64,000 nucleotides of DNA from a virus (lineage: Duplodnaviria; Caudoviricetes). The notes under the pieces were generated by a model. That model was not told where the DNA came from, made no database searches, and saw only the letters and a program-made list of their open reading frames with translations. Location of the stretch: IMG/VR virus record IMGVR_UViG_3300035505_000178; one strand, written 5' to 3'. Positions within the stretch are counted from its first letter, which is position 1, and each line of letters starts with the position of its first letter. The position numbers and the translations under genes are program-made. Positions 68 to 42,491 of this stretch are shown here, piece after piece.

Positions 68-268
68 TTAATTATTTTTCCATGTATCATCTTTTAACCA
101 AGGTCTATCTGGTAACCATGTTCCACTTCCGAAACAGCTTCTAATTGCATCATATACAGTAAGCCATACTAACTAAGTTCCTTTGTAGATAGCTCCTATA
201 TTTTTCTCAACTTTATTAGCAATATTCTTATAAACAGATAATATTAACTTTCCGTCTTTATATATCAT
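68..268 (-). CDS. small tail-region protein, 66 aa with TAG=Gln (…AIRSCFGSGTWLPDRPW…)
   Basis: Manual translation; one in-frame TAG; ATGA overlap with upstream gene. Confidence 0.75.
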
Positions 269-1368
269 GACTACGAATTATTTTGTAAATACTATTCAAT
301 AGCTTGTTGTATTAAATCTTCTACTTCAGATTTAGTGTAATAACGTTCAAGTAAATATTCGCTTCGTACATATCCAGTATCTTTGATGTCGTCTTGTCCA
401 TAAGTACAATAATAAGTATCTTCATCTTTTTCCAAAAGATTCTCATATTCATCTTCTGTTAAAACAACAATATTTGGAATATCTGAAAGGAAAGCTACGT
501 CTGCAGAATCAACTTCTAATCTATTATCTTTAACAACGATTTTAGATTCACCTAAGTTTAATTCTTTTGTGTTAACTGTTTCTGAATTTACATCAGTTAC
601 TTCTAAGTTTGTAGATTTGACATTAGTAGCATTAAGAGTTTCTGTGTCAAGCTAAGTTTGTTGAGCTTCTTTATCCTTAGCATATTGATTCTATGTTACA
701 AACATAAAATCATCATCGTCAGAGTCACCCTTTAAATCTTCTTTTGTCACATAATTATTAATAGTTTCTTGATCTACAAATTTTTCATCAACCTCAGATT
801 TAGTATAATAGTTTTCTGCTTTCTCATTTAATTGAATTACACTAACATAATCTTGCTAAAGATCTTCTGTTGTTGTATAATTTGAAAACTTCTACTATAT
901 ATCTGATACAGAACTAAGAGATGCTTTTTTATTTAACTATTCTTCTATACTTTTTCCCCAAGATGCTTTTAAGTATTCTTGTCCTACTTCTTCATCTGAG
1001 AGACTATCTTCATATATATAATAGTATGTATTAGCGTGAAGGAATGTTTGAGTTTCATCTATAGGTTCATAATCCTCAGTTGTATTAGCTTTCCAAGTTT
1101 TATACTCATCACTAGTACAAGCTATAATTTCTATAGATTCATATGAAGCTCTCCATCCTGTCTTCTAATTAATCTAAGACTTATCAATGAGCATATAAAT
1201 ATTACCATCTGCTACACAAGCAACGGTCATACCTTGATAAGCACTATCCGCAGAAATATTATATAAGTCCTCTACACTACTAACTACTGTTCTAATATCC
1301 AACGGTTTAGGAGCGTCTACTTTTAGAGATACTCCTAATACTGCATCACCACTATACTTATACGCCAT
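265..1368 (-). CDS. putative tail/structural protein, 367 aa (TAG=Gln)
   Basis: ORF 1174-1368 continues through TAGs to TGA at 265-267, which overlaps the next ATG (ATGA). Confidence 0.8.
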
Positions 1369-2785
1369 TTAAGATAAAACTTATTTTATGAGGAAGAATT
1401 GCAGAATAAGAACTTTGTTTGGTCCATACTTTATAAGTAATACCATTTAATGTTTCAGTCGATTCTACCCAATCAGACATATTAACATTTAAATATCCTA
1501 ATCCGCCATCTACAGTAAATGAATTTATTTGAGCTTTAGTTCCAGGGAGTTTTATAACTGCAATACCTGTAAGATAAATATCTATATCTGATACTGATTT
1601 ATAGAATGGAACAAGTTCCTATTTAGTTTCAGATCCTTGAGTTCCTGCGTACCAAGGATAAGTAGCAGTAATATTTAATTCTGCTGTAATAGAACCTTCT
1701 TCAATTCTTTTATTAGTTGTTTCACCTTTGTTGTTTATTAAGTATTCTCCAGCAGCATAGTTAACAACACCTTGATGTAAATATGTTCCTATTTTATCGT
1801 AACTTGTTACAGGAGTACTATTAAGAGTTACACTTTCTTCTCTAGAAATTTCTTCACCTGCGTCATTCTAAGTGAATATTAAAGTAGGAGTTAATAATGC
1901 AGATCCGACCTCTACAACGGACTACAGAATTTCTTCATACTCTAATGTAGGTTCTACTAAATCTCTAACAGAAGTTGGAAAGATAATTGCATCAATAATT
2001 TCAGTAAATGATTTATTTTTTAACTGACTTACTGTTACATCTGATATTAAAGGAGATGTTGCATCATCTGGTAACTCTGTATTATAAACAGTATCAACAA
2101 GTTTTTCTTGCAATTCTTCAATCTCTGAACTAACATCTTTGACGTATAATCCTTCATTATTAGATAAAGCATTATTTTCTTTTTCAGAAATAACAACTTG
2201 TAACTTCTCATCTTCAATTGTTATAGTATCAGATAAGTGAGTTTGTATCCAATCAGAAATATTATTATTTACGTCAATGACTTTTAAATCTTCATTTAAT
2301 TTTGTAATCTGATTGTTGATAGACTAAATAGAAGTATTAATTCCTTCTATAGAAGTTGAATTAGAACTGGTATTCAGTAAAAGATCCTAAATCTATGTAT
2401 TAATAGAACTTACGGATTCTTTTAATTGTGCAATTGAATCAGAGTCTGACTCAAAAGTACTAACATAATGAAGAGCATATTGAAGAGCATCCTGAACATT
2501 AGTTAAATCTTTAAACTCATCACTTTTAAATTGTTGTAATGTTTTAACATAATTAACTAAGTCAGACTAGCTCTCAATTATACCTGTTATGTTTCCCCAT
2601 TCAAGAGTTTCATTATCTGCAATTCCTAAATTCTTTCTAACTTTAGCTTTCTCTAAAGCAGTTCTATATTCTCCTAGAAATTTATCCTTTAACAAAGGAA
2701 TAGGTTCACTCTTTACAGGTTTACCTTTCTTTCCACAAGAAATAATATCTGCGTTACTAACCTAAGTGTATGTAGTCTACATCAT
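1358..2785 (-). CDS. putative tail fibre/structural protein, 475 aa (TAG=Gln)
   Basis: MMQTTYTQ... start, in frame with fragment 1922-2113; TAA at 1358; coiled-coil then beta-rich region. Confidence 0.75.
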
Positions 2786-2954
2786 TCTAATTTAATAATT
2801 GCTATTTAATAAAATCGTGATTATCTAATTTAACTGGAAGATTAATAAAACAGATTAAATTTAATATTTCTTGATAATCTGGTCTATTACCCTTTTTAAC
2901 AGCTCTTAGAAAATCTTCATATCTTTTAATAGCTTTTCTTTTAAGAGCATCCAC
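2754..2954 (-). CDS. hypothetical late protein, ~66 aa (GTG start; alternative ATG 2978) (TAG=Gln)
   Basis: DALKRKAIKRYEDFL... reads through 3 TAG to TAA 2754. Confidence 0.6.
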
Positions 2955-3663
2955 AACCAATATGTTTATTATGTCCATGACCAGAGCAGAATCCACCACA
3001 TCTATTAAACATAGATAATAACCTTTCAGCTTCCATGAACTATTTAAATCCAATTAAATAATCTATAACATTTAAAGTCATCCATATAAAATCTCTTATA
3101 TATAGTAAGTTATCTTGTGTGGAGTTCTTACACTTGTCAAGAAGTTGATCAAACAATTGTTTGCAATAATTGATATAACATTGCTACAAATGTCCAGTAT
3201 AGAATACATCAATTCTGCATTTCTATAAAGTAGTTCCTTCAATATTACGTTCAAGAATTTCTTTTACTGTACACTCTTCTAATTCTCCATCAACTTCTTT
3301 ATATATTTTATCGTCTTCGAAAATATAAATAGTTTCCCAATTATCTTTATTTGTTAAATTATCATACCATTGTCGAGTTGGAAGTATCATGTGTGTTACA
3401 ACATAATAACCATCTTCTTTTACTTTAAAAGTACAAGAATCAATATCTTCTGTGTGTTCATTTAACAAAACATCAATTAAAGTTGTGTGATCAGTTGATA
3501 CTTTAACAATACTGTTAAGAGTTGCACTTTCACTATATTTATATTTATCAAAAGTTGCTACAACTTCAACGTCTTCAGGAATATACTGGTTATATTCTTT
3601 AGAAAAATCTTCAATTAATATTTCCCCGTTTAACTTCGGGTGTATGTCAATACTAAATTCCAT
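2941..3663 (-). CDS. structural-module protein with Cys-rich C-terminus (CGGFC...GCGCS), 240 aa (TAG=Gln)
   Basis: MEFSIDIH start; fragment 3223-3699 continues in frame to TAA 2941. Confidence 0.8.
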
Positions 3664-4466
3664 TATTTTACGTATCCTATTAAATAAGGTCCTTGCCATC
3701 TAATTTGATCATCATCTGAATTTATTATACCATTAACTGATGTTGCAGTAATCATCCAAAGTTTTCCAGTAAAATCAGTGATACTTTCTGTTGTCCAACC
3801 ATCACCAGGATTATCAGATTTATTATCTACATTAGGAACATCTGAATCAGTAACTTGATAACGTATTTCAAGTTTACTATCAAATGCCCATCTACCAAAT
3901 TGAGCAGGGTCAGAGAACTTAGTCCATTTACCTTCAACTCTTTTACGAGTAGACATAAAAGCATAAGGTCTTGCTGCACTAATACTTACAGGAGTTTCTG
4001 TCCAACCTTCTGGTAATTTCTCATCATACTAAGTTAAATCATCTTCATCATCATAAACAATTTCAGGTGCTTTCTAAGTAGATTGAGCAATATAGATATT
4101 CTAAATCTTTTCATAAAGATTAGTTGCAACAATTTCATATACAGTATTCAGATTCTGTGTATCTCCGTTATAAGTATATTTAGTTCGTTTCCAAACATAC
4201 GGATATTCATCGTTAGGCAATACAAATGTAGATGACCATGATCCTAATTCTTTTACATAACTTTCATCCTTAGAATCAGTTCTAACATACATTACATCAA
4301 CTATAATATTGTTAGCTGCATCTGCTTCACCACTTAATGTACTTACCTAAGTATATAAATCTGTTATAGCGGTCTACACAGAATCTTTCTCTGTACATGT
4401 AACAGATGAAGCTTCTGTTATAGGATAAATCTTTTGTTTACTGTTATTATATAACTATGTTCCCAT
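3663..4466 (-). CDS. putative tail-associated protein, 267 aa (TAG=Gln)
   Basis: Joins in-frame fragments 4101-4292 and 3663-3956; start MGTQLYN with TAG at codon 4. Confidence 0.8.
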
Positions 4467-4468
4467 AT

Positions 4469-6619
4469 TTATCTGAAATTAACTTTATCATTATAAGGAT
4501 TTCCATCTCTTAGTTGCATCAATTCAATCTCAGTTCTCTTTTGCTAAACTTCAATTTGTTTTTCTTTATACTCTTTATCAGTATTAGCATTGAACCATTG
4601 AACTCGATATTCTAACTGAATCTTTTGTTGCTCTAACTTCATCTTCTCTTCATTCAAAGATTTGAGTTCTTGTTGAGCCTGTTGCAATTGTTGCTACATT
4701 TGCTACAGTTGTTGATTTGCTTCTTCAAGTTTTTGAGATAATTGTTTCAACTAATCGTTTTCTTCCTTTTGTTTCTTTAAAGCCTTTTGAACTTTTAATT
4801 TAATATCAGTAAGACTCTTTGCAGTCATTACTTCAAATAAAATATCAGGAGGAAGGGCTTGAGCTTTAATTAATTCAGGAACTAATTGTTTTAATTGCTA
4901 AATATCCTACATTACTTCTGTACTAGATACAATATGTATATCATAACTAGTTAATGTAAAATGTTCAGGTAATGCAGTGAAAATTCTTTGTTGTTCCTCA
5001 CCAAGTATTAAGACTCCAGATATTCCGTTCTTATATACTTTCTTAGCAACATTCAAACAATCTAATAACATTTCATCAGTAACTAAATCCATCTACTGAT
5101 AATATTGTTTAGTTACAGTAAATGAATTTTGTACACCTTGTTTAATATTAGTTACTGCATCATTCTAACTAATTCCGTTTAATCTTTCTCTAAACACACC
5201 AGTAATAGATGATACTGTACTTTCAACAGATTGAATTGCAATTTCAATAGCTTGAATTGATTGAGCTTTTAAAGTTTCATCAAATCCATTAAAGATTGTA
5301 TTCAAAGGAGCATTACCATTATCGTTTCTTCCTTCTTGTGAACTATCAATTAATTGTAAACCACCTTTCTTATAAGCAATCCATTTTGCAACTCTTTCGG
5401 GCCATTTAACTCCTAAAGTTGTAGGAATTAATGACATATCAATAATACTACCTGATACACCACTATTTGCAACTAACCTATCTTTGTAATAATTTAATAA
5501 GTCATATCTATCTTGTAGTGGCATACATTTAAGCATCAAAGAATATGGTTCGTAAGATCTGTTAAAGAAATAAACTCCATTAATAGTAAGTCTACATTCA
5601 TTAGGATTATCTATAGAACGAACAACCTATTCATCTTTACCTCTTACAATATAAATGCTATCTCCAATTCTGACAACATTGTACCTCTACATAACAAAAT
5701 CATCATCAGTTTCAATCCATTCAACATCATAAACAGGCATTAATCTAAATCTGTGTTGTCCATCTGGATAACCTGGAACATTACTATATTCAGAAGATAT
5801 TATTTCTTTTTCTCCGTAAGTTCGTCTATAACTAACAGCACGTTCATCAGACCATTCATCCTTCAATCTTTTTCTATCTTCTTTTGATAACTCTTTACCA
5901 AATCTATTAAGTATTTCAGCTTTCGTTAACCATTCTCTTATTACTGCTCTTGATGCATCTCTAGCATAAGGAGTTTCATAATTATCATCAGTAAAAGTAT
6001 TCAATGGATTTAGAACTTGAATCTTAACATTACTTTGATTCTAAGAACTAAGTACTCTAAAATAAGAAAGTCCTGAAATTAATATATCTGTTAAAAGCTA
6101 TCTAAGTTTAGTTTTAAGATCCGTTTCTCTTGACTACATTATATACTAGATAATGTCTTGAGCTGCAGTTTCATATTTAGAAACAAACGAGTCATTAACA
6201 TTTTCAATAATTTTATCAAGCTACATTTTAATAGATTTATCGGTAGTATCTTTACCATCAATAAACTATAATAGAGAATTAGTTAAATGACTTTTCAAAA
6301 ACTCTACTAAAGCTTTCTCAATTTCTAACTATTTCTCTCGCTCAATGTTACTTATTGTTCTAGCATCTTTACAAGATATTTTTGGAAGTATTGGAGTATC
6401 CAAATATTCACCGACTAAAGCATCTATATGCTTCTTTAGTAATGGTGTAAATTCAACTGATGTTGGGCTTCCAATTCCATAATTATTCTCTAAGTATTCA
6501 AACTATTCAGGATCTCTTATACCGTTATAATAATTATAAGCTTTCTAAAGTTCTACTTTGTCGTAAACTAACTCAGAAATAACTTCATCTGCTTTGTCTA
6601 TTAATTCTTCGTCCTTCAT
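4469..6619 (-). CDS. portal protein (Crassvirales type), 716 aa (TAG=Gln)
   Basis: Joins in-frame fragments 5687-6004, 5165-5539 and 4907-5092; KAYNYYNG…KHIDALVGE, SITGVFRERL; C-terminal Gln-rich coiled coil; next to terminase. Confidence 0.85.
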
Positions 6620-6881
6620 TTGCTGGGAATTTACCAGTTACGTTATAATGTTTAATTTTAATCATTTTAGAAGCACGTATCTATTCTTTAATAAATTTAA
6701 GATACTCTTCATCTGGCAAATCTGCCATAAACACTATAGGATTTTCAGTATTATTTAAATTAAATGCTACCTTATATCCTTCGGGTTCTAAATCTTCTAT
6801 TTTTAATCTTCCGTTATATTCAGCTTTATAAATTTCTCTAATATAACCTAGGATCGCTTGTTTCAACTCTGTATGGGTCAT
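6585..6881 (-). CDS. hypothetical protein between TerL and portal, 98 aa (TAG=Gln)
   Basis: MTHTELKQAIL start; one TAG, then TGA at 6585. Confidence 0.7.
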
Positions 6882-9153
6882 CTTCTTCGATTCTAATATT
6901 AAATGTAGGTTGATATCTCTATTTAGGAATTGCTCCAAAATGTCGATAACCTTTTTCATCTTTATACCATCCAATATCTTCAAATTCTTCAACATCTTTT
7001 TTAACTACAGAAGGCTACCTTCCAGATAATTCCTAATCTGCTAAGAATGTCATACCTAAGGCAGCAATAATATCGAACTTTGTTTTATTCTCATCGTTGT
7101 AAGAATTTAACTGTTCAAGTATTTCTTCAAACCAGATTGTATGACAATAATCTTCAACAAAATCAGCAGTTAAATCTGTATGTTGTTCAATGATAGCTTT
7201 AGTTGCTGGAGTTCCATATGATTTACTATTACCATTCTTTACATCAGCAAGAGTGGCTCTAGGTCTACGCATAAAATAACTTAAACAATTATTTTCTCTA
7301 GCCCAAGTTACCATTGCCATACGAGTTGCCTCAATATTTATTCTACAATTATAATATCTACATAAGCACATTGCAATTTTATATGCTTCTCTAATATTCT
7401 ATGGTCTATCTTTATACATACATACAATCATAGGTTCAGCTAAACCATATGCACGTTTTAAAATAGTAATACAGAAGTCAGAAGGAGATCTAGTTTGACT
7501 AGAAGTTTGTGCTGCACCAATATCAATACCATCAATACCAGCAACATATAAATCTCGTAATTCTGTATAGTTGCGAGCTTCAAATTCTTCTCCAGCAGCT
7601 TCAGCTTTTATTTGTTTAGCTTTCTAATCTTCTTTATAAAGATCTGACCATACTGGATGCTCAAGTATTTGAACTTTTCCATTTTTATCAGGAATCCATC
7701 TAAAACCATTTATATTGTCGAAAGTATGTTTGTTATTTTTAAAAGCATAAACTAACAATCCTTTCTCAGGTCTTGGACCACGCTTATGTAATTTTATTTC
7801 TGCTAACTAATTAGCAATATTTGTTTTATTAAATTTGTTTACACCTTCAAGACTAAATGCTTCTTCTGCAGTCCAGCATCGCTCAGCACATTTTTTAGGA
7901 TACTCATTAGGTAAAGCTAACAAGTGATTTCTCTCTTCCTATAATACTTCTTTATATTCTTTAGTGTTACATACTCCACGATTATCCATATATTTTGGAT
8001 TCAATGCTTGTATATAATAAGGAATAAAGAATCCTGTCTCTACTGAAGTACCATCAGCAGTATATGTGTGTCTATAAGGTAATATTTTAAAAGCTCTTGG
8101 ATGATAGTAAATCTCTTTTAGTCCTTCTAGAGCTGTACCAGAATCACCACCAGTACCACCAAACACCATAGTTCCACGAGGAACACCTTGTATTTCACAA
8201 AGCTCTTGTCCTTGTACTACAGCTGTTGTTAAATCAGGCCAAGAACCACTTTCATCATATATTAATAAGTCTACACGATCACCACGAATATTAGAAGCTT
8301 TACTTCCATTAATTCCAATGACTGTAGACTAAAAACCAGATGGTTCAAACTAACCATTCACTTTTGTATAAACACCAGAAGTTTTTTGTAAATCTTGATC
8401 GACAATACGAGGTTTAGCAAATCCTCCTTGTGTTTTAGTGTTTAAAAATGTAAGAGCATGAGTAAACTTGCTAAATGTTCCTTTTAAGAATTTATCGTTA
8501 TAGCAAGTAATCATGGTTCTACTTTTTCTAATAGTACTATACATTCTTGCAGACAAAGATGCCATAATTTCTGAAAATCCAATTGAACGAGCTTTCATCA
8601 TTGCCACATGTTTATGCAATATACGTGCCATCTAAAGATAGTGAAAGAATGTATAATGTGAAGCAAAGAAGATAGGAAAATCATCATTAGTACCATAACC
8701 TGATGCTTGAGACTAATTAACTGAAGGTAATTGATAAAAATTTAAAAAGAAATAATTATCTCCAGTAATAGTATATCCATTTACAGAATATCCATATTTA
8801 CAACGAAGATATTGCTCTTTCCAAAATTCATTATATCTTTTACTACCTTTTAAATGCTAAGTGTATTTACCAGTACGTTTATATTCTTCTCTAGCTTCGG
8901 TAAACCAATCTGGATTAAAGTCTAATCCTTTAGTTTCTGTTAAAGGTCTATAACCTGTAATCTCATAAGAAAGTTCTGGATCAAATACTTCTATAGGATC
9001 TTCTTTTCTAACATCCCAATAATCTTTATTATAAGATCTCTCAATTCTTATTTGTTCTACTAATTCTTTTGCTTCTTGTATATCTTGTTTTTCTAGATTA
9101 TCAGCTATCTCCTAAATAATTTCCTAAGCCTAGTCTACTATTCTTTTAGCCAT
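6826..9153 (-). CDS. terL: terminase large subunit, 775 aa (TAG=Gln)
   Basis: Walker A-like KARSIGFSE, Walker B LLIYDESG, GGTGG, RNase H-like YVAGIDGID; fragments 8350-8631, 7939-8169 and 7033-7371 share one frame. Confidence 0.92.
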
Positions 9154-9155
9154 AA

Positions 9156-9716
9156 TTAAATATCTCCTGGATCAAATCCATCTTCAATTCCAGCACGATT
9201 AACAGATTGTTCAGTTAATTCTTTCTTAACCTAATCTTCTAGAATTATTAATTCTTCATGTACCTTATGTAAAGTGGACATTTCCTTCATTACTTTTTCT
9301 GCCTGAAATACAGGCTTACCATTTGCATCACGTTCATTTAAATCCACAATCGTATCAAAGTAATCTATAAACTAATCACAAGCACGTCTTGCAGCCTATA
9401 ATAATTTAATAGATTTATTTGAATCTTGTAGTTCCCTATACTTCCTACAAGCAGCTCGAAAATCAGGATTGTTAAATTCTTCTTCTGTTATTCCAGAATC
9501 TTCTATAGCTTCCTAATGTCGTTCCTATTCTGAATACTAACTATAAGGACTTTTCCAATCTATAGCAAGATAAATATAAGTTAATTCTCTAGTTGCTCTT
9601 TCTTTAAATTTACTTTTATCTCTTTTTATTAGATTGGAAAATTCCTTAGTTAATAATAGTTCAGGTTCATTTAATTCAAGTTGCTTGTCTACATTATCAT
9701 AAACAAAAACATTCAT
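9156..9716 (-). CDS. protein directly upstream of TerL, 186 aa (TAG=Gln); possible small terminase
   Basis: MNVFVYDN...ELTYIYLAIDWKSPY; absent from ORF track because of several TAG; ends 3 nt before terL. Confidence 0.75.
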
Positions 9717-9739
9717 TAATCATTAATTTTATATTTTAA

Positions 9740-11701
9740 TTATTTATCAGATCCTATAGGATACCTTTCACGTAAACGTTCGTTACGAAGACTATCAACC
9801 TATTCTTTAGTTGTTCCAAACATGTTATATACATTTTCATCAGATGCTAAAGTACCACGACCTGCAATTCCAAGAGTAGGTCGTGTAAAACTATATAAAA
9901 CAGGGTAAGTAATATCTTCCATTGTTTTAGCATGTGCTATCTTTCGTGCATTATTTGCATTTTTCATTACATATGCTGCCTTACTTGCTTTACTGAGTTT
10001 TGCTGCAACATTAGCAGCTTTTGCTGCAGTAGTTGCTGCTTTTATTTCAGGTCCAACTAATGGAAGTACCATAGATAAATCACCTAATAAAGATAACCCA
10101 GTCCACCCTGCTTGTTCCCATGAAGGATGATCGTATAACTATTTAGCTTCTTTATATGTACCAAAGATAGGAATTGCTCTTTGAACAAGTTCAAGTCCTT
10201 CCTATCCTTTAGGAATTAAATCTTTTTTTTTTACTTGAGTGCCACAAGCTGCTTTCTTAACATTACGATATTTGTTTTTAAATTCTTCAACCTCATCCAT
10301 TTGTTTTTCAACCATCTTGTTACCATCTTGGTTTTTCTTCATACAAGCTTTACAAATACGTCCACCTTTCTTATAATAACCCATTTCATATTCATCTGGA
10401 CATTTATTTTGTAAGAAATTAATATAATCAAGTTTTATTCCAAATTTAGCTTTACGTTGCTTAGCCTATTGAAATTGTTGATATATTTTTTGTAATCCTT
10501 GTTTACCTTTCTTTTGAGCATATGCTTGAAGTTCTTCTTCGCTAGTAATATTTTCATTATCTACTTGTTTAGCATAAGCTACTAAATATTGCATAAATTC
10601 TTTCTAATCGTCTTCGTTCATAGTTCCTCCTTGTTGATTTTTTTTAATATATTCATTGTGATTAAAAAATGACTTATTGTTATTTGTTTTATAATACTAA
10701 TTAAACCAAGTATTAAAAGCATTGTCTAAAGCAATATCTATTTCAGTATTACTTTTTCCTTGTTTTTTTAAGTAATCAATTATACGTTGTTTATAATTAT
10801 ATTCAAAATCACTTTTAGCTGCACTTTTATCATAATAACCTCTTGCTAATGCTAAATACGGAGAAGTTGTAGTTGTTTCAGTATTTCCATCAGTTCTATT
10901 TGTAGTCGAATGAGGAATAGCCCATTCTAAATAAGGAAAGAATTGATCTTTTAATTCTTGATTATCATAAGTTTCTATAGCTTCATCAGTTTTACTTGTA
11001 TTTGAAGGAGTAACAACCTATTCAGGTTTAGGTTTAGGTTTAATAACTGGTTTAACATAACTAGCTACAGCCTAATCAAAATCCATTAGATTTCCTGTTT
11101 TATTAATATAATCTTGATATGCTTTCTAAGTATTAGCTCCCCATTTACCGTCTTCTAATAATTTGTGACCATTTGTTCCTAAATAACCAAGTCTATTTAA
11201 CTATTGTTGAATAGCTATTACTTGCTCAGGACTTGCGCCCATATTCTAAGCATTCTGATTCCACTATCCGTTTACTATTTGATTCTTAGCTTCCCACTAA
11301 CCTTGATTATTAAAATTGAAATATTTTTCTTTTTCTAAAGAATTATCTTCCATTTGCTAAGCAAGAGTATCATCTTCATTAGTAAGAGGATAAAATTGAG
11401 TAACAGGTTTAGGAGTTCTTTGTTTTATATATTGTTCACGTCTAGCTCTTTCACCTGCAGCCCAATCGTCATCAAACTAAGAATCAAAATAAGAACGAGC
11501 TTTCTTTAAATTGACATTATTGTTAGAATTTGCAGTTAATTCTCCTAAATAATTTTTCCATCGTTCGTTATATGCTTTTTCTCGTCCAGCATTTGCATCA
11601 AATCCATCATCTAAATTTGTTGTTGTATTCTAATTTAGATTTAATATTCCAAATGGGTCTTTAACAGAATATTTTGAAAAATCATAATTACCTAATCCCA
11701 T
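9740..11701 (-). CDS. 653-aa modular protein with peptidoglycan-binding (PG_binding_1-like) motif; putative virion/cargo protein (TAG=Gln)
   Basis: IQQQLNRLGY…DGKWGANTQKAY; no TAA/TGA found in frame; includes fragments 10202-10384 and 9800-10072. Confidence 0.75.
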
Positions 11702-11703
11702 AA

Positions 11704-11907
11704 TTAAGCTAACTTTAAATCCTTGGTACTAAATACAGCTTCTTGTAATAAACCAGAAGTTGTAAACCATCTGCAACGTATTCCTTTTAATCCAGAATTA
11801 TCTTTAAATAATGCTAGCTCTTTTCTCAGAACTAGCATTTTAGGAGATTCTATTTGTCTTAATACAACAACATCTCCTGGGTGAAAATATATTTTATCCT
11901 CTTCCAT
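11704..11907 (-). CDS. YodC/DUF2158-like small protein
   Basis: FHPGDVVVL…SPKMLV…CRWF…F..L pattern. Confidence 0.7.
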   Translation of the reverse strand: MEEDKIYFHPGDVVVLRQIESPKMLVLRKELALFKDNSGLKGIRCRWFTTSGLLQEAVFSTKDLKLA

Positions 11908-12469
11908 TTTTACGTTCTGTTAATCCACTGTTAACTACAGCCATGATACGAGTTTCATTAACTGTTACGAAACCTTGTTTAAAGAACGGTATTTGATTTT
12001 CACAAGCCACTGTAAAGAACACTAAGTCACCAGTTTTTAAGAACTTAACTTCTGGACCAGTTTCAATAACAGTACCTACTTTAATAAATGGACTATCTTC
12101 TTCCTCTTGACCAGTTTCCTGATTTTTGTGAGTTTGAACCGAACCTCCACCTAAATCTACAATAATACCAGATTTTGTAACCTCAACTCTTTGGAATGGA
12201 TTTTCATTAAAAGGTTTAATAAGTACATAACTTCCAAGAGGCATAATCTCAAGACCATTCATATCCTCAGATATTTCTTTAGCATAATTTTCAAGAGCTT
12301 GATTATGTTTCTCAAATTTGTCTATATATTCATCTACCTTAGTGTTGAACTTTTCTTGTTGCTCTCTAAGAAGTGTTTTGTGTGCTTCTTCGCCATTTAA
12401 AACAAAATGTTGTCCTGTACCTTCCATTCCAGTAACCATGTCTGCAATTTTTTGATTTTGATTTCTCAT
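11894..12469 (-). CDS. GroES-like co-chaperonin domain protein
   Basis: IMPLGSYVLIKP…TKSGIIV…GTVIETGP…GDLVFF…IMAVV. Confidence 0.75.
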   Translation of the reverse strand: MRNQNQKIADMVTGMEGTGQHFVLNGEEAHKTLLREQQEKFNTKVDEYIDKFEKHNQALENYAKEISEDMNGLEIMPLGSYVLIKPFNENPFQRVEVTKSGIIVDLGGGSVQTHKNQETGQEEEDSPFIKVGTVIETGPEVKFLKTGDLVFFTVACENQIPFFKQGFVTVNETRIMAVVNSGLTERKNGRG

Positions 12470-12473
12470 AAGT

Positions 12474-12710
12474 TTACCATTTATTCATTTCACATTTTTC
12501 ATTAAATAATCTAGTCTTATTGTCTAATATACATCCGCATATTCCACATACATCTCCAATAATTTTTATATTCTATTTTTCTCTACACTTGTCACATATT
12601 TTAAGTCTATCTTTAGACATCTCTTCTTCTTTATTTGTTAATTTATAATAAATACTTTTAAGTATTCTAAAAGGATGTTTAAAAATAGCAATAATCCATT
12701 TAATTACCAT
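12474..12710 (-). CDS. Cys-rich (Zn-binding) protein, 78 aa (one TAG=Gln); paralogue of 12704-12937
   Basis: DRLKICDKC…CGICGC…KTR…C…KW. Confidence 0.75.
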
Positions 12711-12937
12711 TTGTCTATAATACAATGATTTTCTCGTCTTTGAACTTTAGTTGGAATATAACACCCACAACCTTTTACATATCCTTTTTTAGGTTTATCA
12801 CTAACATCATCATTGTCAGGATTTATATATAAATATTGATTACAAGTATCACTATCATAATTATAAATAGGACAGTGCATACAAATATTTAATCTATCAT
12901 CAATACTCAATTCTTTGGCGTTTTCTTTTGTTTTCAT
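12704..12937 (-). CDS. Cys-rich (Zn-binding) protein
   Basis: DRLNICMHC…C…GCGC…KV…C..KW. Confidence 0.7.
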   Translation of the reverse strand: MKTKENAKELSIDDRLNICMHCPIYNYDSDTCNQYLYINPDNDDVSDKPKKGYVKGCGCYIPTKVQRRENHCIIDKW

Positions 12938-13808
12938 TTAATATACTCTCCTTTTTATAAAAACGTAACATTTTAACAACTTCATCTTTTAAATAAGGTA
13001 AATGATATACAGTCATATTATCATTATGATCAAAGTGAATTAAAACTAAATCTTCAATTTCAAAACTAGGATTTAATTGTTGAATCATAACAGCATATGT
13101 ACTTAACTGCATTGTATAATGCCAATAATTAACATCATCTAAATTATTTAATGGGTATTTCATTTTAGTTGTAGACTTTGTTTTACTATTATAGAAACTC
13201 TTTTGTTCGATTTTCTTATTCGTTTTATAGTCTCCGATTACGATTTTATTACCTTTTTTGATTAATAAATCAATTTGTCCTGCTACGTTTAATTGACCAT
13301 CTTTAGAAGACCAAGAAATAAGATATTCTGGATATATTCCGTTCTCTAAGTCTAAATCAGTTTTACCTTTAACACATTCAAATTTTCCTCCAATTTGAAA
13401 TTTGCTAATGTCAATGTTATGTTTAGCTTTATAAAATGAATTTTCTAAATCTGCATGAATCTTTGTTCCTCTTTCACAAGAGTTTGTATTCTCTGCTTGC
13501 CATTCATCTAAAATTGCTTGTTGTTCTCTATTAAAATCATTTTCAGAAATATCATATAAATCAAGAATAGATTTATCAAATTTCTTAGAATTTAATAAAG
13601 ACTTTTTCTCAATATTCCAAGATTCTTTAGGTAAAAGTTTCTCTAATGCTTTATAAGCAGACCAGAAATCTTTATCAAAATCATTGGTAAAACTATGTAT
13701 CATAGTAGTAACTGATACAAAATTTTTTCTAGGATTAGTAACATCAAAGTATTTATGAGTTTCCTCAACAAATGCAATGTTACCGTTCTGTTTAGTAATT
13801 TCTTCCAT
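12900..13808 (-). CDS. PD-(D/E)XK nuclease (Cas4/exonuclease-like)
   Basis: SVTT, RGTKIH, AGQIDLL, IGDYKT, QLSTY motifs. Confidence 0.85.
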   Translation of the reverse strand: MEEITKQNGNIAFVEETHKYFDVTNPRKNFVSVTTMIHSFTNDFDKDFWSAYKALEKLLPKESWNIEKKSLLNSKKFDKSILDLYDISENDFNREQQAILDEWQAENTNSCERGTKIHADLENSFYKAKHNIDISKFQIGGKFECVKGKTDLDLENGIYPEYLISWSSKDGQLNVAGQIDLLIKKGNKIVIGDYKTNKKIEQKSFYNSKTKSTTKMKYPLNNLDDVNYWHYTMQLSTYAVMIQQLNPSFEIEDLVLIHFDHNDNMTVYHLPYLKDEVVKMLRFYKKESILNENKRKRQRIEY

Positions 13809-13935
13809 TTATTTTTCTCATTTTACATTAATCATATATCATTTTAATCTAAATAAATTTTGTATTTAACAATAATATAAATATATATGATATTGTACAA
13901 ATAATTAACCATATTATTACATATAATTTAAACAA

Positions 13936-14568
13936 ATGAATTATTTTTAGGACTTTACCTTATCTTTTCTTAAAGATGGATCTAAAATTCACATTAAAGA
14001 AGAAAATAAAGGTAAATTTACAGAGTCAGCTAAAAGGGCAGGTGAATCTGTTTAGGAACATGCTCATAAAGTTCTAAATAATCCTCACGCAACTAAATTA
14101 CAAAAGAAAAGAGCGTAGTTTGCAGTTAATGCGAAGAAATGGAAAGCTTAGGACGGAATGAAAATTAATCCTTATGATGCTGGTAATCTAACTGAAACAA
14201 TGTATAAAAATTTTAGTTTTGAAGATTATGGAGAACCGTGGCACCATTATAAGTTTACTATTCCAGAATAGTTAGCAGACAAACTAGGATATTTACCAGA
14301 TGAAAGAGGTCATAGAGATGATAGAGTTAAACTTATTACACATCCAAGTTCTCCTTATAGAGGAAAATGGAAATCACTGTATTAGTTTGATTTAACAGAT
14401 TTTGGTATGAATAATCCTAATCATACAATATTTGGATTAGCAGATGGTGGACAAGACCCACAAGCTGTAGTTACATATAAAGGAGGAATAGTACTTCCAG
14501 AAATTACTGTAACACCTAAAAGTAAATATGTAATGAATCCATATGATAATAGAAAGTTTTATTTATGA
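13936..14568 (+). CDS. crAss-type protein with IHIK..KGKFT…KRAQFA.NAKKW domain, 210 aa (TAG=Gln)
   Basis: Manual translation through TAGs; TGA overlaps next ATG (ATGA). Confidence 0.8.
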
Positions 14569-14750
14569 CGTATCAACAATCTAAAGAAAAAGCAAAAGAA
14601 GGTAAGATAATAATGTTACCAAATTATGTAGGATATTTTAATTGGGATTATGGTATAGAAAATTTAGTATTCCACAATAATACATATATTTGTGTAGCTG
14701 ATGATTTAGATAATATTAAAAACAGAAACGATTTTTATTATATTATATGA
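14565..14750 (+). CDS. hypothetical protein
   Basis: ORF track; ATGA overlaps on both sides. Confidence 0.7.
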   Translation: MTYQQSKEKAKEGKIIMLPNYVGYFNWDYGIENLVFHNNTYICVADDLDNIKNRNDFYYII

Positions 14751-15382
14751 CAGACTGGATTAATGGATGGATTCCAGAAAGAAAACGACAAGATTATTAT
14801 GATAGAATAAATCCAGGTGCTGGATTTGGACCATTTGCATTTATAGGATAGGGATTTAAATATTATTTAGGAGATGGAAGTAGTAGACAAAAAGCAACTC
14901 CAGAATCAGAAGCTAGATGGGCAGCATATTTAGGGCTACCTTATGATAAGTCTAAAGCTCCTGACACTAAAATAAGATTTGAACACGATAAAGATTATCC
15001 TGACCGATAGTATCAAGGATTAAGTGAAGATGCTAAAAATGAAATAAGAGAAAGGATAATTCCAGTACTTGAAGATAATGAATTGAAAGAAGGATGGACT
15101 TAGGTAATAGGAGACAACAATCCTATAAAAAGAAAAGCTAAATTTACTAAAGATAAAACTGTAATATATCCTAGACAAGATCATACTGATGATCTTGAAA
15201 GTTTTGGAATTAGAGAAGTAGGAAATTCTGGAATTTATGAAGTAGGAGATAAATATGATTTTCCTTGGTATGTTCCAATTCCAGATAGACCAGAAGGAAG
15301 AGAACTAATGATTAGAGATACTATATGGAGCCCAAGAGCTAATCCAAAAGAATATAAAAAATTAGTTAAAAAAAGACAATGA
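14747..15382 (+). CDS. hypothetical protein, 211 aa (TAG=Gln)
   Basis: ATGA overlaps at both ends only if TAG is read through. Confidence 0.75.
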
Positions 15383-15693
15383 AAATAATCTACAATAAAA
15401 TAATTCCGTTTCCAGGTTATAAAGCAATAAACTTATTTGGAATATTATTTGCTAGAAAGAATGCAAAGATAGATTAGAAAACTATCAATCATGAATCTAT
15501 TCACACAACTTAGATGAAAGAGATGTTATATATTCCTTTTTATATTTGGTATTTAATTGAATATATAATTCTCCTTATAAAGAAAGATAAGAATCCTTAT
15601 AGAAATATCCGATTTGAAAAGGAAGCTTATTTATATCAAGATGATGATGAATATTTGAAACATAGAACACATTTTGTATGGGCAAGCTTGTAA
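15379..15693 (+). CDS. HExxH membrane-associated putative metallopeptidase (Bacteroidetes family), 104 aa (TAG=Gln)
   Basis: AINLFG…NHESIHTTQMKEMLYIPFYIWY…RNIRFEKEAY; the Q after the HExxH is TAG (15511). Confidence 0.8.
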
Positions 15694-16559
15694 AAAGATG
15701 TCAAACTGGTTCAGTACTTGATACTCCTTGGAGTAACTATATGGAAGAATTAAAAACTACTGATCCAGATAAGTATAATTAAATACAATATAATAAAGCT
15801 CGCAATAAAGCTCCACATAGCGAAATAGTAACCTATACTGACGCTTCTGGTAAAACTGTTAGAAGAGGAAATACTGGAGCTGGATATGTAAGTGGCAATG
15901 ATCCTGTAGGAGATTTTATTGTTACAGGTGCTGTGTTAGGTAAGCCTTTAAGTTGGGTTGGTGGTAAAGCAGTAGACTTAGGATTAGGAATTGCTGGTAA
16001 ATATGGAAGTGGAACTGTTCAATAGGCTGCTAGAAATAGACTTGTTGGTAGAGTAATGAGCAGACAAACTCCAGAAACTCCTCAAACTATATTCTTTAAT
16101 AATGTAGGTTGGGGTCCGAAAGAAACTATGAATGTAGTTCATAAATCTTTATCTGCTGAACCTCTTAAATTATATAATCCTAATAGATATGATGTTGTTA
16201 ATGAAGGAGCTAATCCTCATGGTATTTGGTACACTATAAATCAAGGAGTTGAAAGAACTGCTAAAAATTCTACTCCAGAAAAAGCTGTTAAAGCTGCAAA
16301 TACAAGAAAAATGTTTGCTAAACGTCCTTATACTCATGAAGGAGAATTAACTTTAGATAAACCTATGGTTACTGTAGGTGATGTTCCAGATAGATCATAT
16401 TTAAGTTATTATGCAGATAATGCTGGAGCTGATGGATTAATTTATAATGATATTTATGACAATGGATATAATCATGCTAGAGAAGTATTATCTTATAAAC
16501 TTCATGATAATTAGCCATTAAATATTCCGTCAAATAATAAAGAACTTATATATAAATAA
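15678..16559 (+). pseudogene. 293-codon late gene (TAG=Gln) interrupted by one in-frame TAA at 15780
   Basis: MGKLVKRCQTG start in frame with fragment 16056-16514; single TAA at codon 35. Confidence 0.55.
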
Positions 16560-16568
16560 AAATAGAAA

Positions 16569-17396
16569 ATGATAAAAAATAAGCTTATAAAAAGATATTA
16601 TGAAGGTGGTAAAAGTATACTAAATAAAGAACCAGCTGCTGTAGATAATACTTATGTAAGAAAACCTGAAATATTTACTCCTATAAAAGTTAAAGATAAA
16701 GAAGCAGAAGCCATTAAAGAAAGAATACGTGTAGCAGAAGAATGGCAAAGACAAAATAGTGTAAATCCAGAGGTTTATGATATATTTGAAAATCCTAAAA
16801 AATCTGCTATAATAGAGGCAAAACTAAAATCACGTCGATTTAATAGTATTCCTTATATTAAGGATGATGAAATAATGCTTAGGACAGGTAAATACAATAC
16901 AGGTAAAATAAGTAAAAATGTATTGGATTCTATTTATGCTTCTTCACAAAGAACTGGAGTTCCTATTGAAATTCCTATGGGAATAGCTGGAGTTGAAAGT
17001 ACTTTAGGAATAGGATATGGATTTAAAGAAGGTCGTCCAATTTCAAGTACTGAATTAGTCTCTAATTGGCAGCAATTTGGACTGAATACAGAAAAAGTAT
17101 CTGAAGTAAATAAATATAATGATATTTATCATAAATATTTAAAAGGTGAAAGATTATCTGATTCTGAAATTGAATTTGTAAAAAAGCGGGAAGAAAAGAA
17201 TAATGTTAATCTAAAAAATGTGGAAGCCGTAAAAGAACTTAAAGAAAATCCCATTGATAATGCTGTTAGATATTTCTTAAAGGGGAAGTATAATCCAGAA
17301 GAACCTGGATACAATGATAAAGTAAGAACAGAGGGCAAACTTTTAATGACAGACCCAGCTATTAAGAAATGGTACAATAATAAAATTAAGAAGTAA
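16569..17396 (+). CDS. putative virion protein with lysozyme-fold (transglycosylase-like) segment
   Basis: RTGVPIEIPMGIAGVESTLG; N-terminal KLIKRYYEGG. Confidence 0.55.
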   Translation: MIKNKLIKRYYEGGKSILNKEPAAVDNTYVRKPEIFTPIKVKDKEAEAIKERIRVAEEWQRQNSVNPEVYDIFENPKKSAIIEAKLKSRRFNSIPYIKDDEIMLRTGKYNTGKISKNVLDSIYASSQRTGVPIEIPMGIAGVESTLGIGYGFKEGRPISSTELVSNWQQFGLNTEKVSEVNKYNDIYHKYLKGERLSDSEIEFVKKREEKNNVNLKNVEAVKELKENPIDNAVRYFLKGKYNPEEPGYNDKVRTEGKLLMTDPAIKKWYNNKIKK

Positions 17397-17400
17397 ATAC

Positions 17401-19053
17401 ATGACAAAACTTATAAAGAGATACTAGCAAGGAGGGGTCAATGAATATACTATATAGCCTGGCGACAATTTAAGTATAATTGCAAAAAATAACAATGTTA
17501 AATTAAACGATTTAATAAGTCTTAATAATATATAGGATCGCAATTTTATAAGAGTTGGACAAAAATTAAAACTTCCTCAATCGGTAAAAAAGTTTAATGA
17601 TTAGACTACTACTGAATATATTATACAGCCAGGTGATAATTTAAGTACGATTGCTAAGAACAACAATGTTAATTTAGATGATTTAATACGTCTTAATGGT
17701 ATACAAAACACCAATCTTATTGGAGTTGGTTAGAAATTAAAAATTCCTCAATATAAACCTACTTATTAGGTAAGAAGTTTTAATGATATTTAGTAGATAG
17801 AATCTAATTTAAATTAGAAAAGTGATATTGATATTATTAATACTTATCATGCAACTAAATAGGATAATACTCCTTATATAATAGACGATAAGAAGAACAA
17901 TAAACTAAATGTATATATTAATGGAAAATTGATTAAATCGTTTAATGCTATACATGGAAAATATTCTAATTCTTTTGGAAATACTTATAATAAAAAAACA
18001 AAAACTGGATATTAGCAAACTGATATTGATCCAGATGAAATGACTATAACCTATGTTGATAGTAAAGGAAATATAAAGAATTTAGCTGGTAATCTTACAA
18101 CTCCTGCAGGAATATACTTCTCTAGTAGAAGTAATAACTATCATGGAGCACCTTCTTATATAAGAAGAACTCAACAACAGATAGATTCTAAAAATAATTT
18201 AGGTATTCCATCATCTATACATGCAAGAACTATAAGAGAAGGCGCTAATACTAATGGGTGTACTGGATTATCTAATGAAGACTTACATAAGTTATCTAAG
18301 CTATTAGATGGATATGATAATGTTCCAACTTATATTCTTCCTTCTAATCCACAGAATAGATTTATGATTAGAAATGGATAGCTTTAGTTTAATTCACATG
18401 ATGCTAGTAAAACACCAAATCATTTTACTATAGACTATTCTCCTATTAAGTCAATTAAGTATTCTGCTACAGGATTAGATTCACATTAGAGAGAAGTATA
18501 TAGTGGATTCTCTAAAGGATTAATGCAAAATAAGACTAATCTTTAGAAAGATTTAGGTATTAATAATGATACTTATATACAATTATCTTAGGCTGCGTTA
18601 GGTATATTAGGAGCTGAATCTTAGTATGGATAGAAACATAGTCCTCTTATGAATTTCGCAAGAGCTGCTCATAAATTTATCTCTCATAATAATAGTTCTC
18701 CAGATATTTATAGTAAATATACTACATACGGAGCTAATAAAGATAATAATTCTATAGGATTGACTTAGATACGTTTAAAACGAGAAGAAAATGGTAAATT
18801 AGTAGATAATTTATCTGAAAGATCTAAAGCTCTATTTAAAAAGTATAATATTACAAAAGATGATTTAGTGAATAGTCCAGAAAAAGCAGCTATTGCTACT
18901 ATGATAATATTGGGAGATAATTATTTAAATAGAGGTAGGACAGTTTAGAAAGCTGTTGCTTCTTGGAATCCAAGATAGAATTATTACGATAGAGTAATGA
19001 ATAATTCTAAAAGAGCAGTATTCAGTTAGAATTATCTTAATTTTAAAACATAA
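17401..19053 (+). CDS. 2xLysM + L,D-transpeptidase (YkuD-like) + lytic transglycosylase-like protein, 550 aa (TAG=Gln)
   Basis: YTIQPGDNLS..IA LysM repeats; TPAGIY…SIHAR…TNGCTGL; GILGAES…GLTQI…ASWN; about 20 in-frame TAG. Confidence 0.85.
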
Positions 19054-19754
19054 TGACTAAATATACAAAAAAACAATAGAAATTAATAAGAAGAGGAACT
19101 CCAGGAATACCTAAATATACATAGGAACAATTAGAAGAACGTAGGAAGCAATTAGATAGAGAAGCCGAAGAACAACGAAGACAAATAGCATTATTTCAAG
19201 GAGCTTTAGATCAAGCTGCTGAAGGTTATACTAATCTTGGTCCATCATATAAGGAAGCACAGAAAATAGAGGAGGAAGAAAGATTAAAGAATTGGAGAGA
19301 TTACAAATTAGGAGTAGACGCTACTATGAGAGCCGCTGAATTAGCTTCTGCTGGATATGGTGTTATAAGAGGTGCAGGACATTTATTTCCTAGCTTATCT
19401 AGTTTAAGTACTTCAAGGTATTTTGTACCAAGAGTAATTGGAAAAGCTTTTACTAATGTAGACTATCCACAGTTATTAATGAATACTGTAGGAGGAGTTG
19501 CGGATGGTTATCAATTAGTTACAGCCGATAATACTTTTGATAAAATTGATAATGGTGCAGAGTCTGTATTTGATACTGCTGGCATTGTTGGAGCAACTAA
19601 TGTTGTAAGAAGTACCCCTTTCTTTGGTAAATACAGAAATGCAATAGATACTACATTAGATGCAATGGGTTATACCGCTGCTGGATGGGATTTATTTAAA
19701 GTTACTCCTTGGGGAGAAAAAGTTACTAATTATTTAAAAACAAAACATGAGTAA
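19053..19754 (+). CDS. hypothetical protein, 233 aa (TAG=Gln)
   Basis: TAATG overlap with upstream gene; two TAG before fragment 19326-19754. Confidence 0.75.
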
Positions 19755-20457: not shown

Positions 20458-20758
20458 TTATCCCACTAGGATTCGAACCTAGACTAAAAGATTTCGTACT
20501 ACATTTACTTTCACATAAACTACCATATTATAAATAACTTAGGTATTGTAGTCTGGACTATTTCTTTACCATTTAAAAGGTATCCCCTGTATAGTCTCTA
20601 CGCCATTTATCCTTTAAAAGGAATTTAGTAAGCCATCGCCACATCTATTATTTCTAATAAAAAGGTTTCTGTTTATTAGGGGGAATTTTCAATATATATT
20701 TCTATATAAAGCTCCTGATTTTAAGAGTCTTCTGTGCTGACCATTACACCATAGGACA
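20458..20758 (-). tRNA. intron-containing amber suppressor tRNA (anticodon CUA, Gln-type body); exons 20758-20724 and 20494-20458
   Basis: Spliced: TGTCCTA TG GTGT AATGGTCA GCAC A GAAGA CTCT|AAA TCTTT TAGT CTAGG TTCGAAT CCTAG TGGGATA A, a full cloverleaf. Confidence 0.9.
20495..20723 (-). ncRNA. group I self-splicing intron (229 nt, no ORF) in the anticodon
   Basis: 5' exon ends in U paired with G of GGAG (P1); P2 with GAAA loop; P3 TTCCCC/GGGGA; P7 GAGACTA / AAGAAATAGTCC; P8; P9 ACTACA/TGTAGT; terminal G. Confidence 0.88.
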
Positions 20759-21250: not shown

Positions 21251-21308
21251 ACAATAGTACACACGATTTTAGAAAAGTCCAAGTTAAAAATTGTTAAAAA
21301 TTGTTAAA
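21251..21308 (-). promoter_or_regulatory. conserved promoter: (TTTAAC)x3 at 10-bp phase + TTG-N20-TACTATTG
   Basis: Same architecture at 41861 and 59731. Confidence 0.75.
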
Positions 21309-21657
21309 TTAAGAAAAACTAAAAGTAATCTTTATTTTTCTCCCCCCTCTCTACCTAAATAAAATTTGTTACGATTTAACACTTTTTAACAATCTCAAAA
21401 TGAAATTCGAATTACGTGAGTTCGATTATCGAGTGTACAACTTCGAAGTGTGAATTTGGCAGTAACCGAGATTAAAAGTAAATTTAGGAAGATTATGATG
21501 ATGAAGTATTTTAGGGTTGGAGAGAGGTGTTGTATCTTTTCTGAAAAAATTGAGTGGTAGTGGAGAGGCGGTAGACAACCCCTTTAGTCCCCCCCTGTAC
21601 TTTGATATACAAAAAGAATGTATATTGAAATATTAATCACTAAAAATTTATACAATT

Positions 21658-22518: not shown

Positions 22519-22577
22519 TTACTGTCGTGCCCACCAAAGCACCTGATGAGTCGCTGCAAATTGCGACGAAACAGTAA
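22519..22577 (+). ncRNA. type III hammerhead ribozyme
   Basis: TTACTGTC^GTGC-loop-GCAC CTGATGA GTCGC-loop-GCGAC GAA ACAGTAA; complete core; cleavage after C22526. Confidence 0.92.
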
Positions 22578-42418: not shown

Positions 42419-42491
42419 CCCGTATTCGTATATGGAGTACGCTCCGACTCTAAATCGGTGAGGTCTGCAGTTCGATACTGCTTATACGGGC
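42419..42491 (+). tRNA. atypical amber suppressor tRNA (anticodon CUA at 42450-42452)
   Basis: CCCGTAT/ATACGGG acceptor, CCGA-CTCTAAA-TCGG anticodon arm, GCAG-TTCGATA-CTGC T arm. Confidence 0.8.

Follow-up and report, generated by a model that had tools for sequence, protein, structure and literature searches.

A putative amber-suppressor tRNA gene interrupted by a group I intron is present on the minus strand of a 64-kb window, a term used throughout for the whole stretch of phage DNA that was analysed (64,000 nt; IMG/VR record IMGVR_UViG_3300035505_000178; G+C content 30%). The gene consists of two tRNA halves separated by an intron that contains no ORF (Table 1), and the boundaries given for all three parts in a preliminary description of this DNA proved exact. 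It is located at the border of a block of recoded late genes, among TAG-free ORFs of the minus strand. Genes in the recoded block contain up to 22 in-frame TAG codons, a number which falls to almost none from ~20.9 kb onwards, and the genes for the portal, the terminase and a lysis-type protein are open only if TAG is read through (16–22 in-frame TAGs). The TAG-free genes of the window include those for a helicase, a primase and exonucleases. The terminase is 22–27% identical to crAss-like terminases and 44% identical to that of one unclassified gut phage, indicating that the source is a distant crAss-like phage. Opposite the TAG positions, terminase homologues most often have Q (30 of 151 cells, compared with a 3% background), which supports the reading of TAG as Gln. 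The split tRNA has U1-A72, G10 and a D arm that is near-identical to that of the phage's own tRNA-Gln(UUG), its global identity to tRNA-Gln being no higher than that to other tRNAs and hence not discriminating. The split tRNA is thus likely of the Gln type.

The ORF that starts immediately downstream of the split gene is syntenic with the suppressor tRNA in related phages, and the best homologues of its product are 51–61% identical to it, although no flanking DNA common to the window and the relatives found through this ORF was detected. The two closest homologues (60–61% identity; L155:1-1600 and L162:1-1528) occur on sequences in which no tRNA is present, where the homologue follows the C-terminus of a GroEL-like gene. 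A short direct repeat of the form TTAACAATTTT, at 21270-21320 on the minus strand, lies a little way upstream of the cluster of TAG-free ORFs of that strand and could be a phage-specific regulatory site. A scan for sigma-70 promoters gave 13 sites against 15.3 expected and no terminators were detected, while the Bacteroidota -33/-7 motif gave three matches against five expected, none of them near the split-tRNA operon. On the plus strand at 22519-22577, ~1.8 kb from the split tRNA, the type III hammerhead ribozyme model (RF00008) scores 42.3 bits (E = 7.7e-6 over the entire window), slightly less than its gathering score of 48.5.

Table 1. Features of the split suppressor tRNA locus and related elements of the window (positions from the first letter of the window; helix strands are listed in the direction of the RNA).
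Feature	Coordinates	Strand	Details
TAG-recoded late block	265..19754	.	Portal 19 TAG, large terminase 16, LysM/endolysin-type protein 22
TAG-free ORF, 100 aa	20154..20456	-	No family match; start 2 nt after tRNA
3' exon, 37 nt	20458..20494	-	Loop nt 36-38 (AAA), anticodon stem 3' strand, variable loop, T arm, acceptor 3' strand, discriminator A
Group I intron, 229 nt	20495..20723	-	No ORF; first base U at 20723, omega-G at 20495
P9 domain	20498..20552	-	P9.0 (20552-20548 with 20502-20498) around P9a and P9b
P9a, P9b hairpins	20545-20521, 20519-20504	-	
Catalytic core	20556..20596	-	P7 5' strand 20596-20591, P3 3' strand 20587-20583, P8 hairpin 20582-20567, J8/7, P7 3' strand 20561-20556
P4-P5-P6-P6a domain	20602..20671	-	P4: only 2 supported pairs in subfamily
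P3 5' strand	20680..20684	-	Partner 20587-20583; 5/5 pairs compensatory, 100% paired
P2 hairpin	20693..20708	-	GAAA tetraloop; 6/6 pairs compensatory
P1	20712..20727	-	Exon CUCU (20727-20724) and intron U (20723) pair with guide AGGAG (20716-20712)
5' exon of tRNA-Sup(CUA), 35 nt	20724..20758	-	Acceptor 5' strand, D arm, anticodon stem 5' strand; 3' end is loop nt 32-35 (CUCU)
Non-canonical tRNA(CUA) candidate in tRNA array	42420..42491	+	ARAGORN only

When the two exons are joined in silico, ARAGORN reports a 72-nt cloverleaf with a 7-nt loop, CUCUAAA, and the anticodon CUA, in agreement with the cloverleaf that the preliminary description had derived from joining at 35|36. Displacement of the 5' splice site by a single base gives an 8-nt loop when the joined exons are submitted to the same program. 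The point of insertion is between nucleotides 35 and 36, i.e. inside the anticodon itself, and the CUA anticodon is predicted to arise only once the exons have been ligated. CCA is not encoded in the 3' exon. The expectation that standard tRNA finders could miss such a gene was borne out, as default ARAGORN detected 11 tRNAs in the 64-kb window, all within an array at 42.0–44.4 kb, and did not call the split gene, while Rfam at gathering thresholds gave no match at the locus. When introns were allowed, ARAGORN miscalled the gene as tRNA-Arg(acg).

The exact position of the junction is given by alleles which lack the intron. Enumeration of possible U/G splice pairs with ARAGORN alone is ambiguous, an ambiguity settled by these alleles together with P1. 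When IMG/VR was scanned for exact words from the 5' half of the tRNA, 12 phage contigs of 106–225 kb were identified in which the tRNA halves directly abut without an intron. In all 12 the anticodon arm is the predicted ligated product and ARAGORN assigns the gene as tRNA(CUA); one of the 12 scores 63.3 bits on the Rfam tRNA model. The intron begins with T but exon 2 with A, and the intron ends with G but exon 1 with T. Since the bases flanking each boundary differ, the boundary of the 229-nt indel is unambiguous and cannot be slid. Both the intron-plus and intron-minus forms sought among relatives thus occur, with an identical junction.

Directly 3' of the intron-less suppressor tRNA of L012, at 961-1022, there are weak matches to HDV-like ribozymes (CPEB3 model, 23.9 bits, E = 4.7e-4; HDV-F-prausnitzii, 20.7 bits), a signal which is probably a 'theta ribozyme' such as those published as occurring beside phage suppressor tRNAs. 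No HDV-like signal was detected 3' of the split tRNA of the window.

The intron has the anatomy of a group I ribozyme. All of the helices listed in the preliminary description were correctly assigned, with P1 and its U.G wobble at the 5' splice site, P3, P7, P8, P9 and the terminal G being present. When the Rfam model Intron_gpI (RF00028) was applied to 461 nt around the locus, the core was matched at E = 7.5e-5 with the R/S core (P7) aligned, but the score of 26.6 bits is under the gathering score of 50. For tRNA introns, a working cut-off of 18–20 bits combined with tRNA context, with a 0.5% error rate, has been used, and none of the Rfam group I seeds is bacterial (Williams 2020, 10.1101/2020.01.27.920355). 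A pooled Rfam search of several loci gave no match at E <= 0.01, which is attributed to the filters and the search space.

Comparative evidence for the fold was obtained from an alignment of 19 short introns with a few exon bases, taken from 35 distinct phage introns described below. Without any structure supplied beforehand, RNAalifold recovered P2, P3, P4, P5, P6, P6a, P8, P9.0, P9a and P9b in the order of a group I intron, with compensatory double changes in 30 of its 40 pairs. Addition of the P7 pseudoknot gives 46 pairs in 12 helices, with compensatory changes in 30 of the pairs. Across the 19 members, 94.7% of cells are paired, compared with 33–45% when partners are slid by 1–3 columns, and there are 144 double-change cells compared with 22–40 after sliding; in 500 shuffles, no observed measure was ever attained. 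P7 is invariant in 19/19 members, U at position -1 is present in 19/19 and omega-G in 17/19. In addition, the guide co-varies with the host loop, CUA hosts combining exon CUCU with GGAG, and Leu, Lys and Ile hosts combining exon (A)CUU with the guide GAG(U). The copy in the window forms 46/46 consensus pairs and retains 103 of 106 conserved columns, its three departures being located in a compensated pair (one) and outside the scored helices (two). Combined, these comparisons provide strong evidence that the window intron is a ribozyme under purifying selection. In the sensitive Rfam scan of the locus, the 229 nt showed neither a riboswitch match nor an additional domain.

Two CUA-hosted introns of the family, L021:777-1000 and L031:8923-9147, have A at the position homologous to omega-G and lack P6a, and may be decaying or using another 3' splice site. 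Decay therefore does occur in the family, which lends some weight to an alternative in which the window holds a dead intron within a pseudogene, TAG being decoded by the candidate tRNA at 42420 or by a suppressor encoded outside the window. The presence of this second CUA candidate points in the same direction. Four gut 'metatranscriptomic' runs contain the locus and their contigs bridge both splice sites in the unspliced form only, the joint being absent; a 72-nt tRNA is, however, beyond the reach of contigs from RNA libraries, and DNA may be present in these libraries, such that the data are uninformative with respect to splicing. Conservation argues against a dead intron, as the window copy keeps U at -1, omega-G and the consensus pairs and columns enumerated above, and its exons still form a perfect cloverleaf. 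The 42420 candidate is, moreover, non-canonical. Only one base separates its acceptor and D stems, its D loop is 5 nt, and U.U mismatches are present, including a U.U pair in its 6-bp anticodon stem. The Rfam tRNA model does not match it at E <= 1, and neither an exact-word search of IMG/VR nor blastn against GenBank phages yielded a relative. Its layout resembles that of tRNA-Pyl. The split gene is the only canonical CUA tRNA within the 64-kb window. We consider the alternative of a dead intron within a pseudogene to be highly improbable.

The family to which the intron belongs was investigated using an 18-nt stretch over the P7 3' strand that is common to the window, Lak-B1, cr115_1 and Lak-C1. 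This motif occurs once in the window, with 0.11 occurrences expected by chance at <=3 mismatches. A scan with it identified 48 further phage loci, in each of which the motif is just upstream of a tRNA 3' half. From the 52 oriented motif-bearing sequences (the 48 loci, three GenBank copies and the window), 43 could be typed and yielded 35 distinct introns, hosted by tRNAs for CUA (16), Leu(UAA) (12), Arg(UCU) (4), Lys(UUU) (2) and Ile(UAU) (1). The 16 CUA-hosted introns are always inserted at 35/36, in several different tRNA bodies, two of which have long variable arms, while the 12 phage tRNA-Leu(UAA) introns are inserted at 34/35. Copies in CUA suppressors are found at the same site in Lak megaphages and in crAss-like phages. 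Two contigs of ~160 kb, IMGVR_UViG_3300045988_089481 (L006, L028) and ..._105372 (L035, L057), each have a 586–587-nt tRNA-Leu(UAA) intron; one of them has an intron-less suppressor tRNA and the other a 223-nt intron in its suppressor tRNA. One phage can thus hold two such tRNA introns.

A similar scan of prokaryotes, with one genome per species, gave 87 motif matches, nearly all of which are in metagenome-assembled genomes (MAGs) of gut Bacteroidales. On bacterial MAG contigs, tRNA-Leu(UAA) interrupted at 34/35, the classical setting, accounts for 46 of the 65 matches that were typed. A single CUA host was observed among these 65, on an 8.7-kb contig which is probably a mis-binned phage. In both phylogenetic trees constructed, the window intron is placed within the Leu radiation as sister to the Lak-B copy. 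The tree that includes P1 and P2 groups 14 of 15 CUA-hosted introns in one set (SH-aLRT 95). In the core-only tree, from which P1 and P2 were removed, the relationships of the CUA-hosted introns are not resolved, and the AU test (p = 0.13) does not reject their forming one clade. A single origin of the CUA-hosted introns is consequently not claimed, as its support is lost on the core-only tree.

As judged from these comparisons of sequence, the window intron is a member of the tRNA-Leu(UAA) family that occurs in gut Bacteroidales and in their phages, its guide having been retargeted from CUU to CUCU. The loops targeted by the family are alike, namely CUU|AAAA, CUU|CUAA, CUU|UUAA and CUCU|AAA, and a change of one or two bases in the guide would suffice to retarget the intron. 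Because the target loops are so similar, suppressor loops are susceptible to the intron and no selection need be invoked.

Whether a phage requires the intron to be removed is best illustrated by cr115_1, a complete RefSeq genome (NC_055898.1, L163) whose late genes contain 7–80 in-frame TAGs. ARAGORN calls only two tRNA-Leu genes, one tRNA-Arg gene and a tmRNA in this genome. No suppressor is detectable in it other than a split tRNA(CUA) at ~30.3–30.9 kb, where the record leaves a gap without annotation between gp24 and the gene for the terminase. As the sole detectable suppressor is split, such phages must depend on splicing. Elsewhere in the genome, the cr115_1 record annotates a GIY-YIG homing endonuclease, an HNH endonuclease and an intron-type reverse transcriptase.

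The preliminary description had tied the code switch to the ribozyme and had proposed that splicing acts as a timer or sensor. Dependence on the ribozyme is upheld by cr115_1; the timer or sensor is not. In that proposal, slow or conditional removal of the intron, governed by GTP, Mg2+ or folding, would time the translation of the late TAG-containing genes. Several observations are in keeping with it: the only canonical CUA tRNA of the window is the split one, splicing is obligatory where the split gene is the only detectable suppressor, as in cr115_1, and introns recur in the suppressors of unrelated phages. A regulated group I ribozyme is, moreover, already known, namely the intron of Clostridioides difficile that is controlled by c-di-GMP. 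Furthermore, a ribozyme of another class that occurs beside suppressor tRNAs has been proposed to join in the switch (PMC10879173). However, intron-less alleles serve relatives which are equally TAG-recoded, and the same family occupies sense tRNAs and bacterial tRNA-Leu, where no switch exists. The intron is also minimal, the 229 nt having no added domain of an aptamer type and no riboswitch match, and homing is suggested by the occupation of this site by a second intron, one that bears an endonuclease. The similarity of the loops (CUU|A and CUCU|A) accounts for the association with suppressors without selection. A purpose-built timer or sensor is thus not supported, and we regard splicing-gated timing of late translation as quite improbable. 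The broader proposition, in which intron removal is rate-limiting or conditional such that the ribozyme sets the time of the code switch, and repeated colonisation of suppressors has been selected for the delay or for immunity to endonucleases, also appears unlikely to us. A further suggestion, that the intron shields the anticodon from anticodon nucleases, fails on logic since protection would extend to the inactive precursor alone, the working, spliced tRNA being exposed. In our reading the code switch depends on the ribozyme and nothing indicates that the ribozyme regulates it, although a passenger can be co-opted later.

Comparison of alleles and of neighbouring DNA indicates how the intron is distributed. 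Between the intron-plus L035 and the intron-less L004 and L005, the neighbouring blocks are collinear and 88.7–94.4% identical, and between the window and Lak-B only the tRNA and the intron are conserved. In phages that are syntenic with the window at this locus, the site is occupied by a different intron of ~1 kb with a gene for an HNH endonuclease (PF01844; 26 bits, the cut-off being 21.4). Rfam does not detect this longer, L016-type intron, and its group I status derives from sequence features only. It is from the distribution of the family that past or present mobility of the short intron is suggested, the copy in the window having no homing endonuclease gene.

The two introns could also be rivals: by interrupting the recognition site of the homing endonuclease encoded in the ~1-kb intron, the ORF-less intron would spare the suppressor gene from cleavage during co-infection and would be retained for this reason. 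Intron-borne endonucleases mediate competition between co-infecting phages, as established in work on T-even and jumbo phages, and such a role is consistent with immunity here, as are the presence of two unrelated intron types at exactly the same site in syntenic suppressor genes and the fact that the HNH endonuclease of the long intron passes the Pfam cut-off. Against this, the long intron that carries the HNH gene is not recognised as group I by Rfam. Immunity through occupancy of the site is improbable in our estimation, and it is compatible with the intron being a passenger, as it bears only on why the intron persists.

Combined, the results favour an intact, ORF-less group I intron at U35/A36 of an amber suppressor, likely of the Gln type, in a distant crAss-like phage, the intron being a mobile or formerly mobile passenger, a reading to which we assign a probability of roughly 0.8. 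The steps of splicing that follow are read from the anatomy of the intron and established group I chemistry. The precursor would be transcribed from the minus strand within the TAG-free ORF cluster, and the intron would fold such that the loop sequence CUCU and the guide GGAG form P1, with the U.G pair at the splice site. An external guanosine would then attack after U35, the terminal G (20495) would dock in P7, and ligation of the exons would create the CUA anticodon. No P10 is evident in the window intron, and hence the anticodon stem probably holds the exons together, as it reportedly does in the Anabaena pre-tRNA-Leu intron. Host enzymes would subsequently trim the ends, add CCA and charge the tRNA. 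The intron would be kept competent for splicing because the phage needs the tRNA.

Full-text literature searches turned up no report of suppressor tRNAs, or of phage tRNAs, that contain a group I intron, in accordance with the statement in the preliminary description that no case was known for suppressors. The closest known system is the classical tRNA-Leu(UAA) intron, assigned to IC3 and designated 'Leu.3Ug' (Williams 2020, 10.1101/2020.01.27.920355), with which the window intron shares the invariant P7 and J8/7 core, the order of helices, the anticodon-loop location and the U.G/omega-G setting. In contrast to the classical intron, the host is a stop-codon suppressor in a phage genome and not a sense tRNA, the site is one position further 3' (35/36, 'Sup.4Ug', rather than 34/35 at U34/A35) and separates the second from the third anticodon base, and the guide is GGAG and not GAG(U). 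Insertion at U35/A36 of a CUA suppressor thus makes it a relative in a new setting rather than a member of the class Leu.3Ug. The survey in which these classes were defined (10.1101/2020.01.27.920355) describes 21 tRNA settings from bacterial and archaeal assemblies only, and its text names no suppressor or phage.

Code 15 crAss-like and Lak phages (PMC7886860; 10.1101/2021.08.26.457843) have the same TAG-rich late, structural and lysis genes and TAG-free replication genes, and a phage-encoded CUA suppressor of the Gln type, as is likely here, but the suppressor is uninterrupted in those papers. Recoded genomes in which no suppressor is detectable were noted by Yutin 2021 (PMC7886860), and both that study and Borges 2021 (10.1101/2021.08.26.457843) discuss introns only in protein-coding genes. 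Theta (HDV-like) ribozymes (Kienbeck 2024, PMC10879173) are likewise coupled to the maturation of phage suppressor tRNAs; however, they cleave a 3' trailer outside the tRNA, whereas the group I intron is inside the anticodon and must ligate the exons. Kienbeck 2024 (PMC10879173) discusses a role for theta ribozymes in the code switch and does not mention introns. The T4 td, nrdB and sunY introns and the delta and zeta introns of crAss-like phages (PMC7886860) are mobile self-splicing phage elements, as is proposed for the window intron, with presence/absence polymorphism among relatives and variants that bear HNH or GIY-YIG endonucleases. In contrast to these introns of protein genes, the window intron is hosted by a tRNA gene, has no ORF and is a ribozyme of the tRNA-Leu family. 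What is new is therefore the occurrence of a known intron family in the anticodon of a phage amber suppressor, an occurrence which we consider to be real and the intron to be intact.

The intron family is common to phages and their Bacteroidales hosts, and it can reach new anticodon loops by small changes in the guide (CUU to CUCU). Intron-split suppressors explain at least some of the recoded genomes in which a suppressor is not detected, cr115_1 being a concrete case, and tRNA finders applied to phage genomes should add a step that is aware of group I introns. In such phages, translation of the portal, terminase, tail and lysis genes would first need a group I ribozyme reaction, a dependency which offers a possible handle to study or perturb the code switch.
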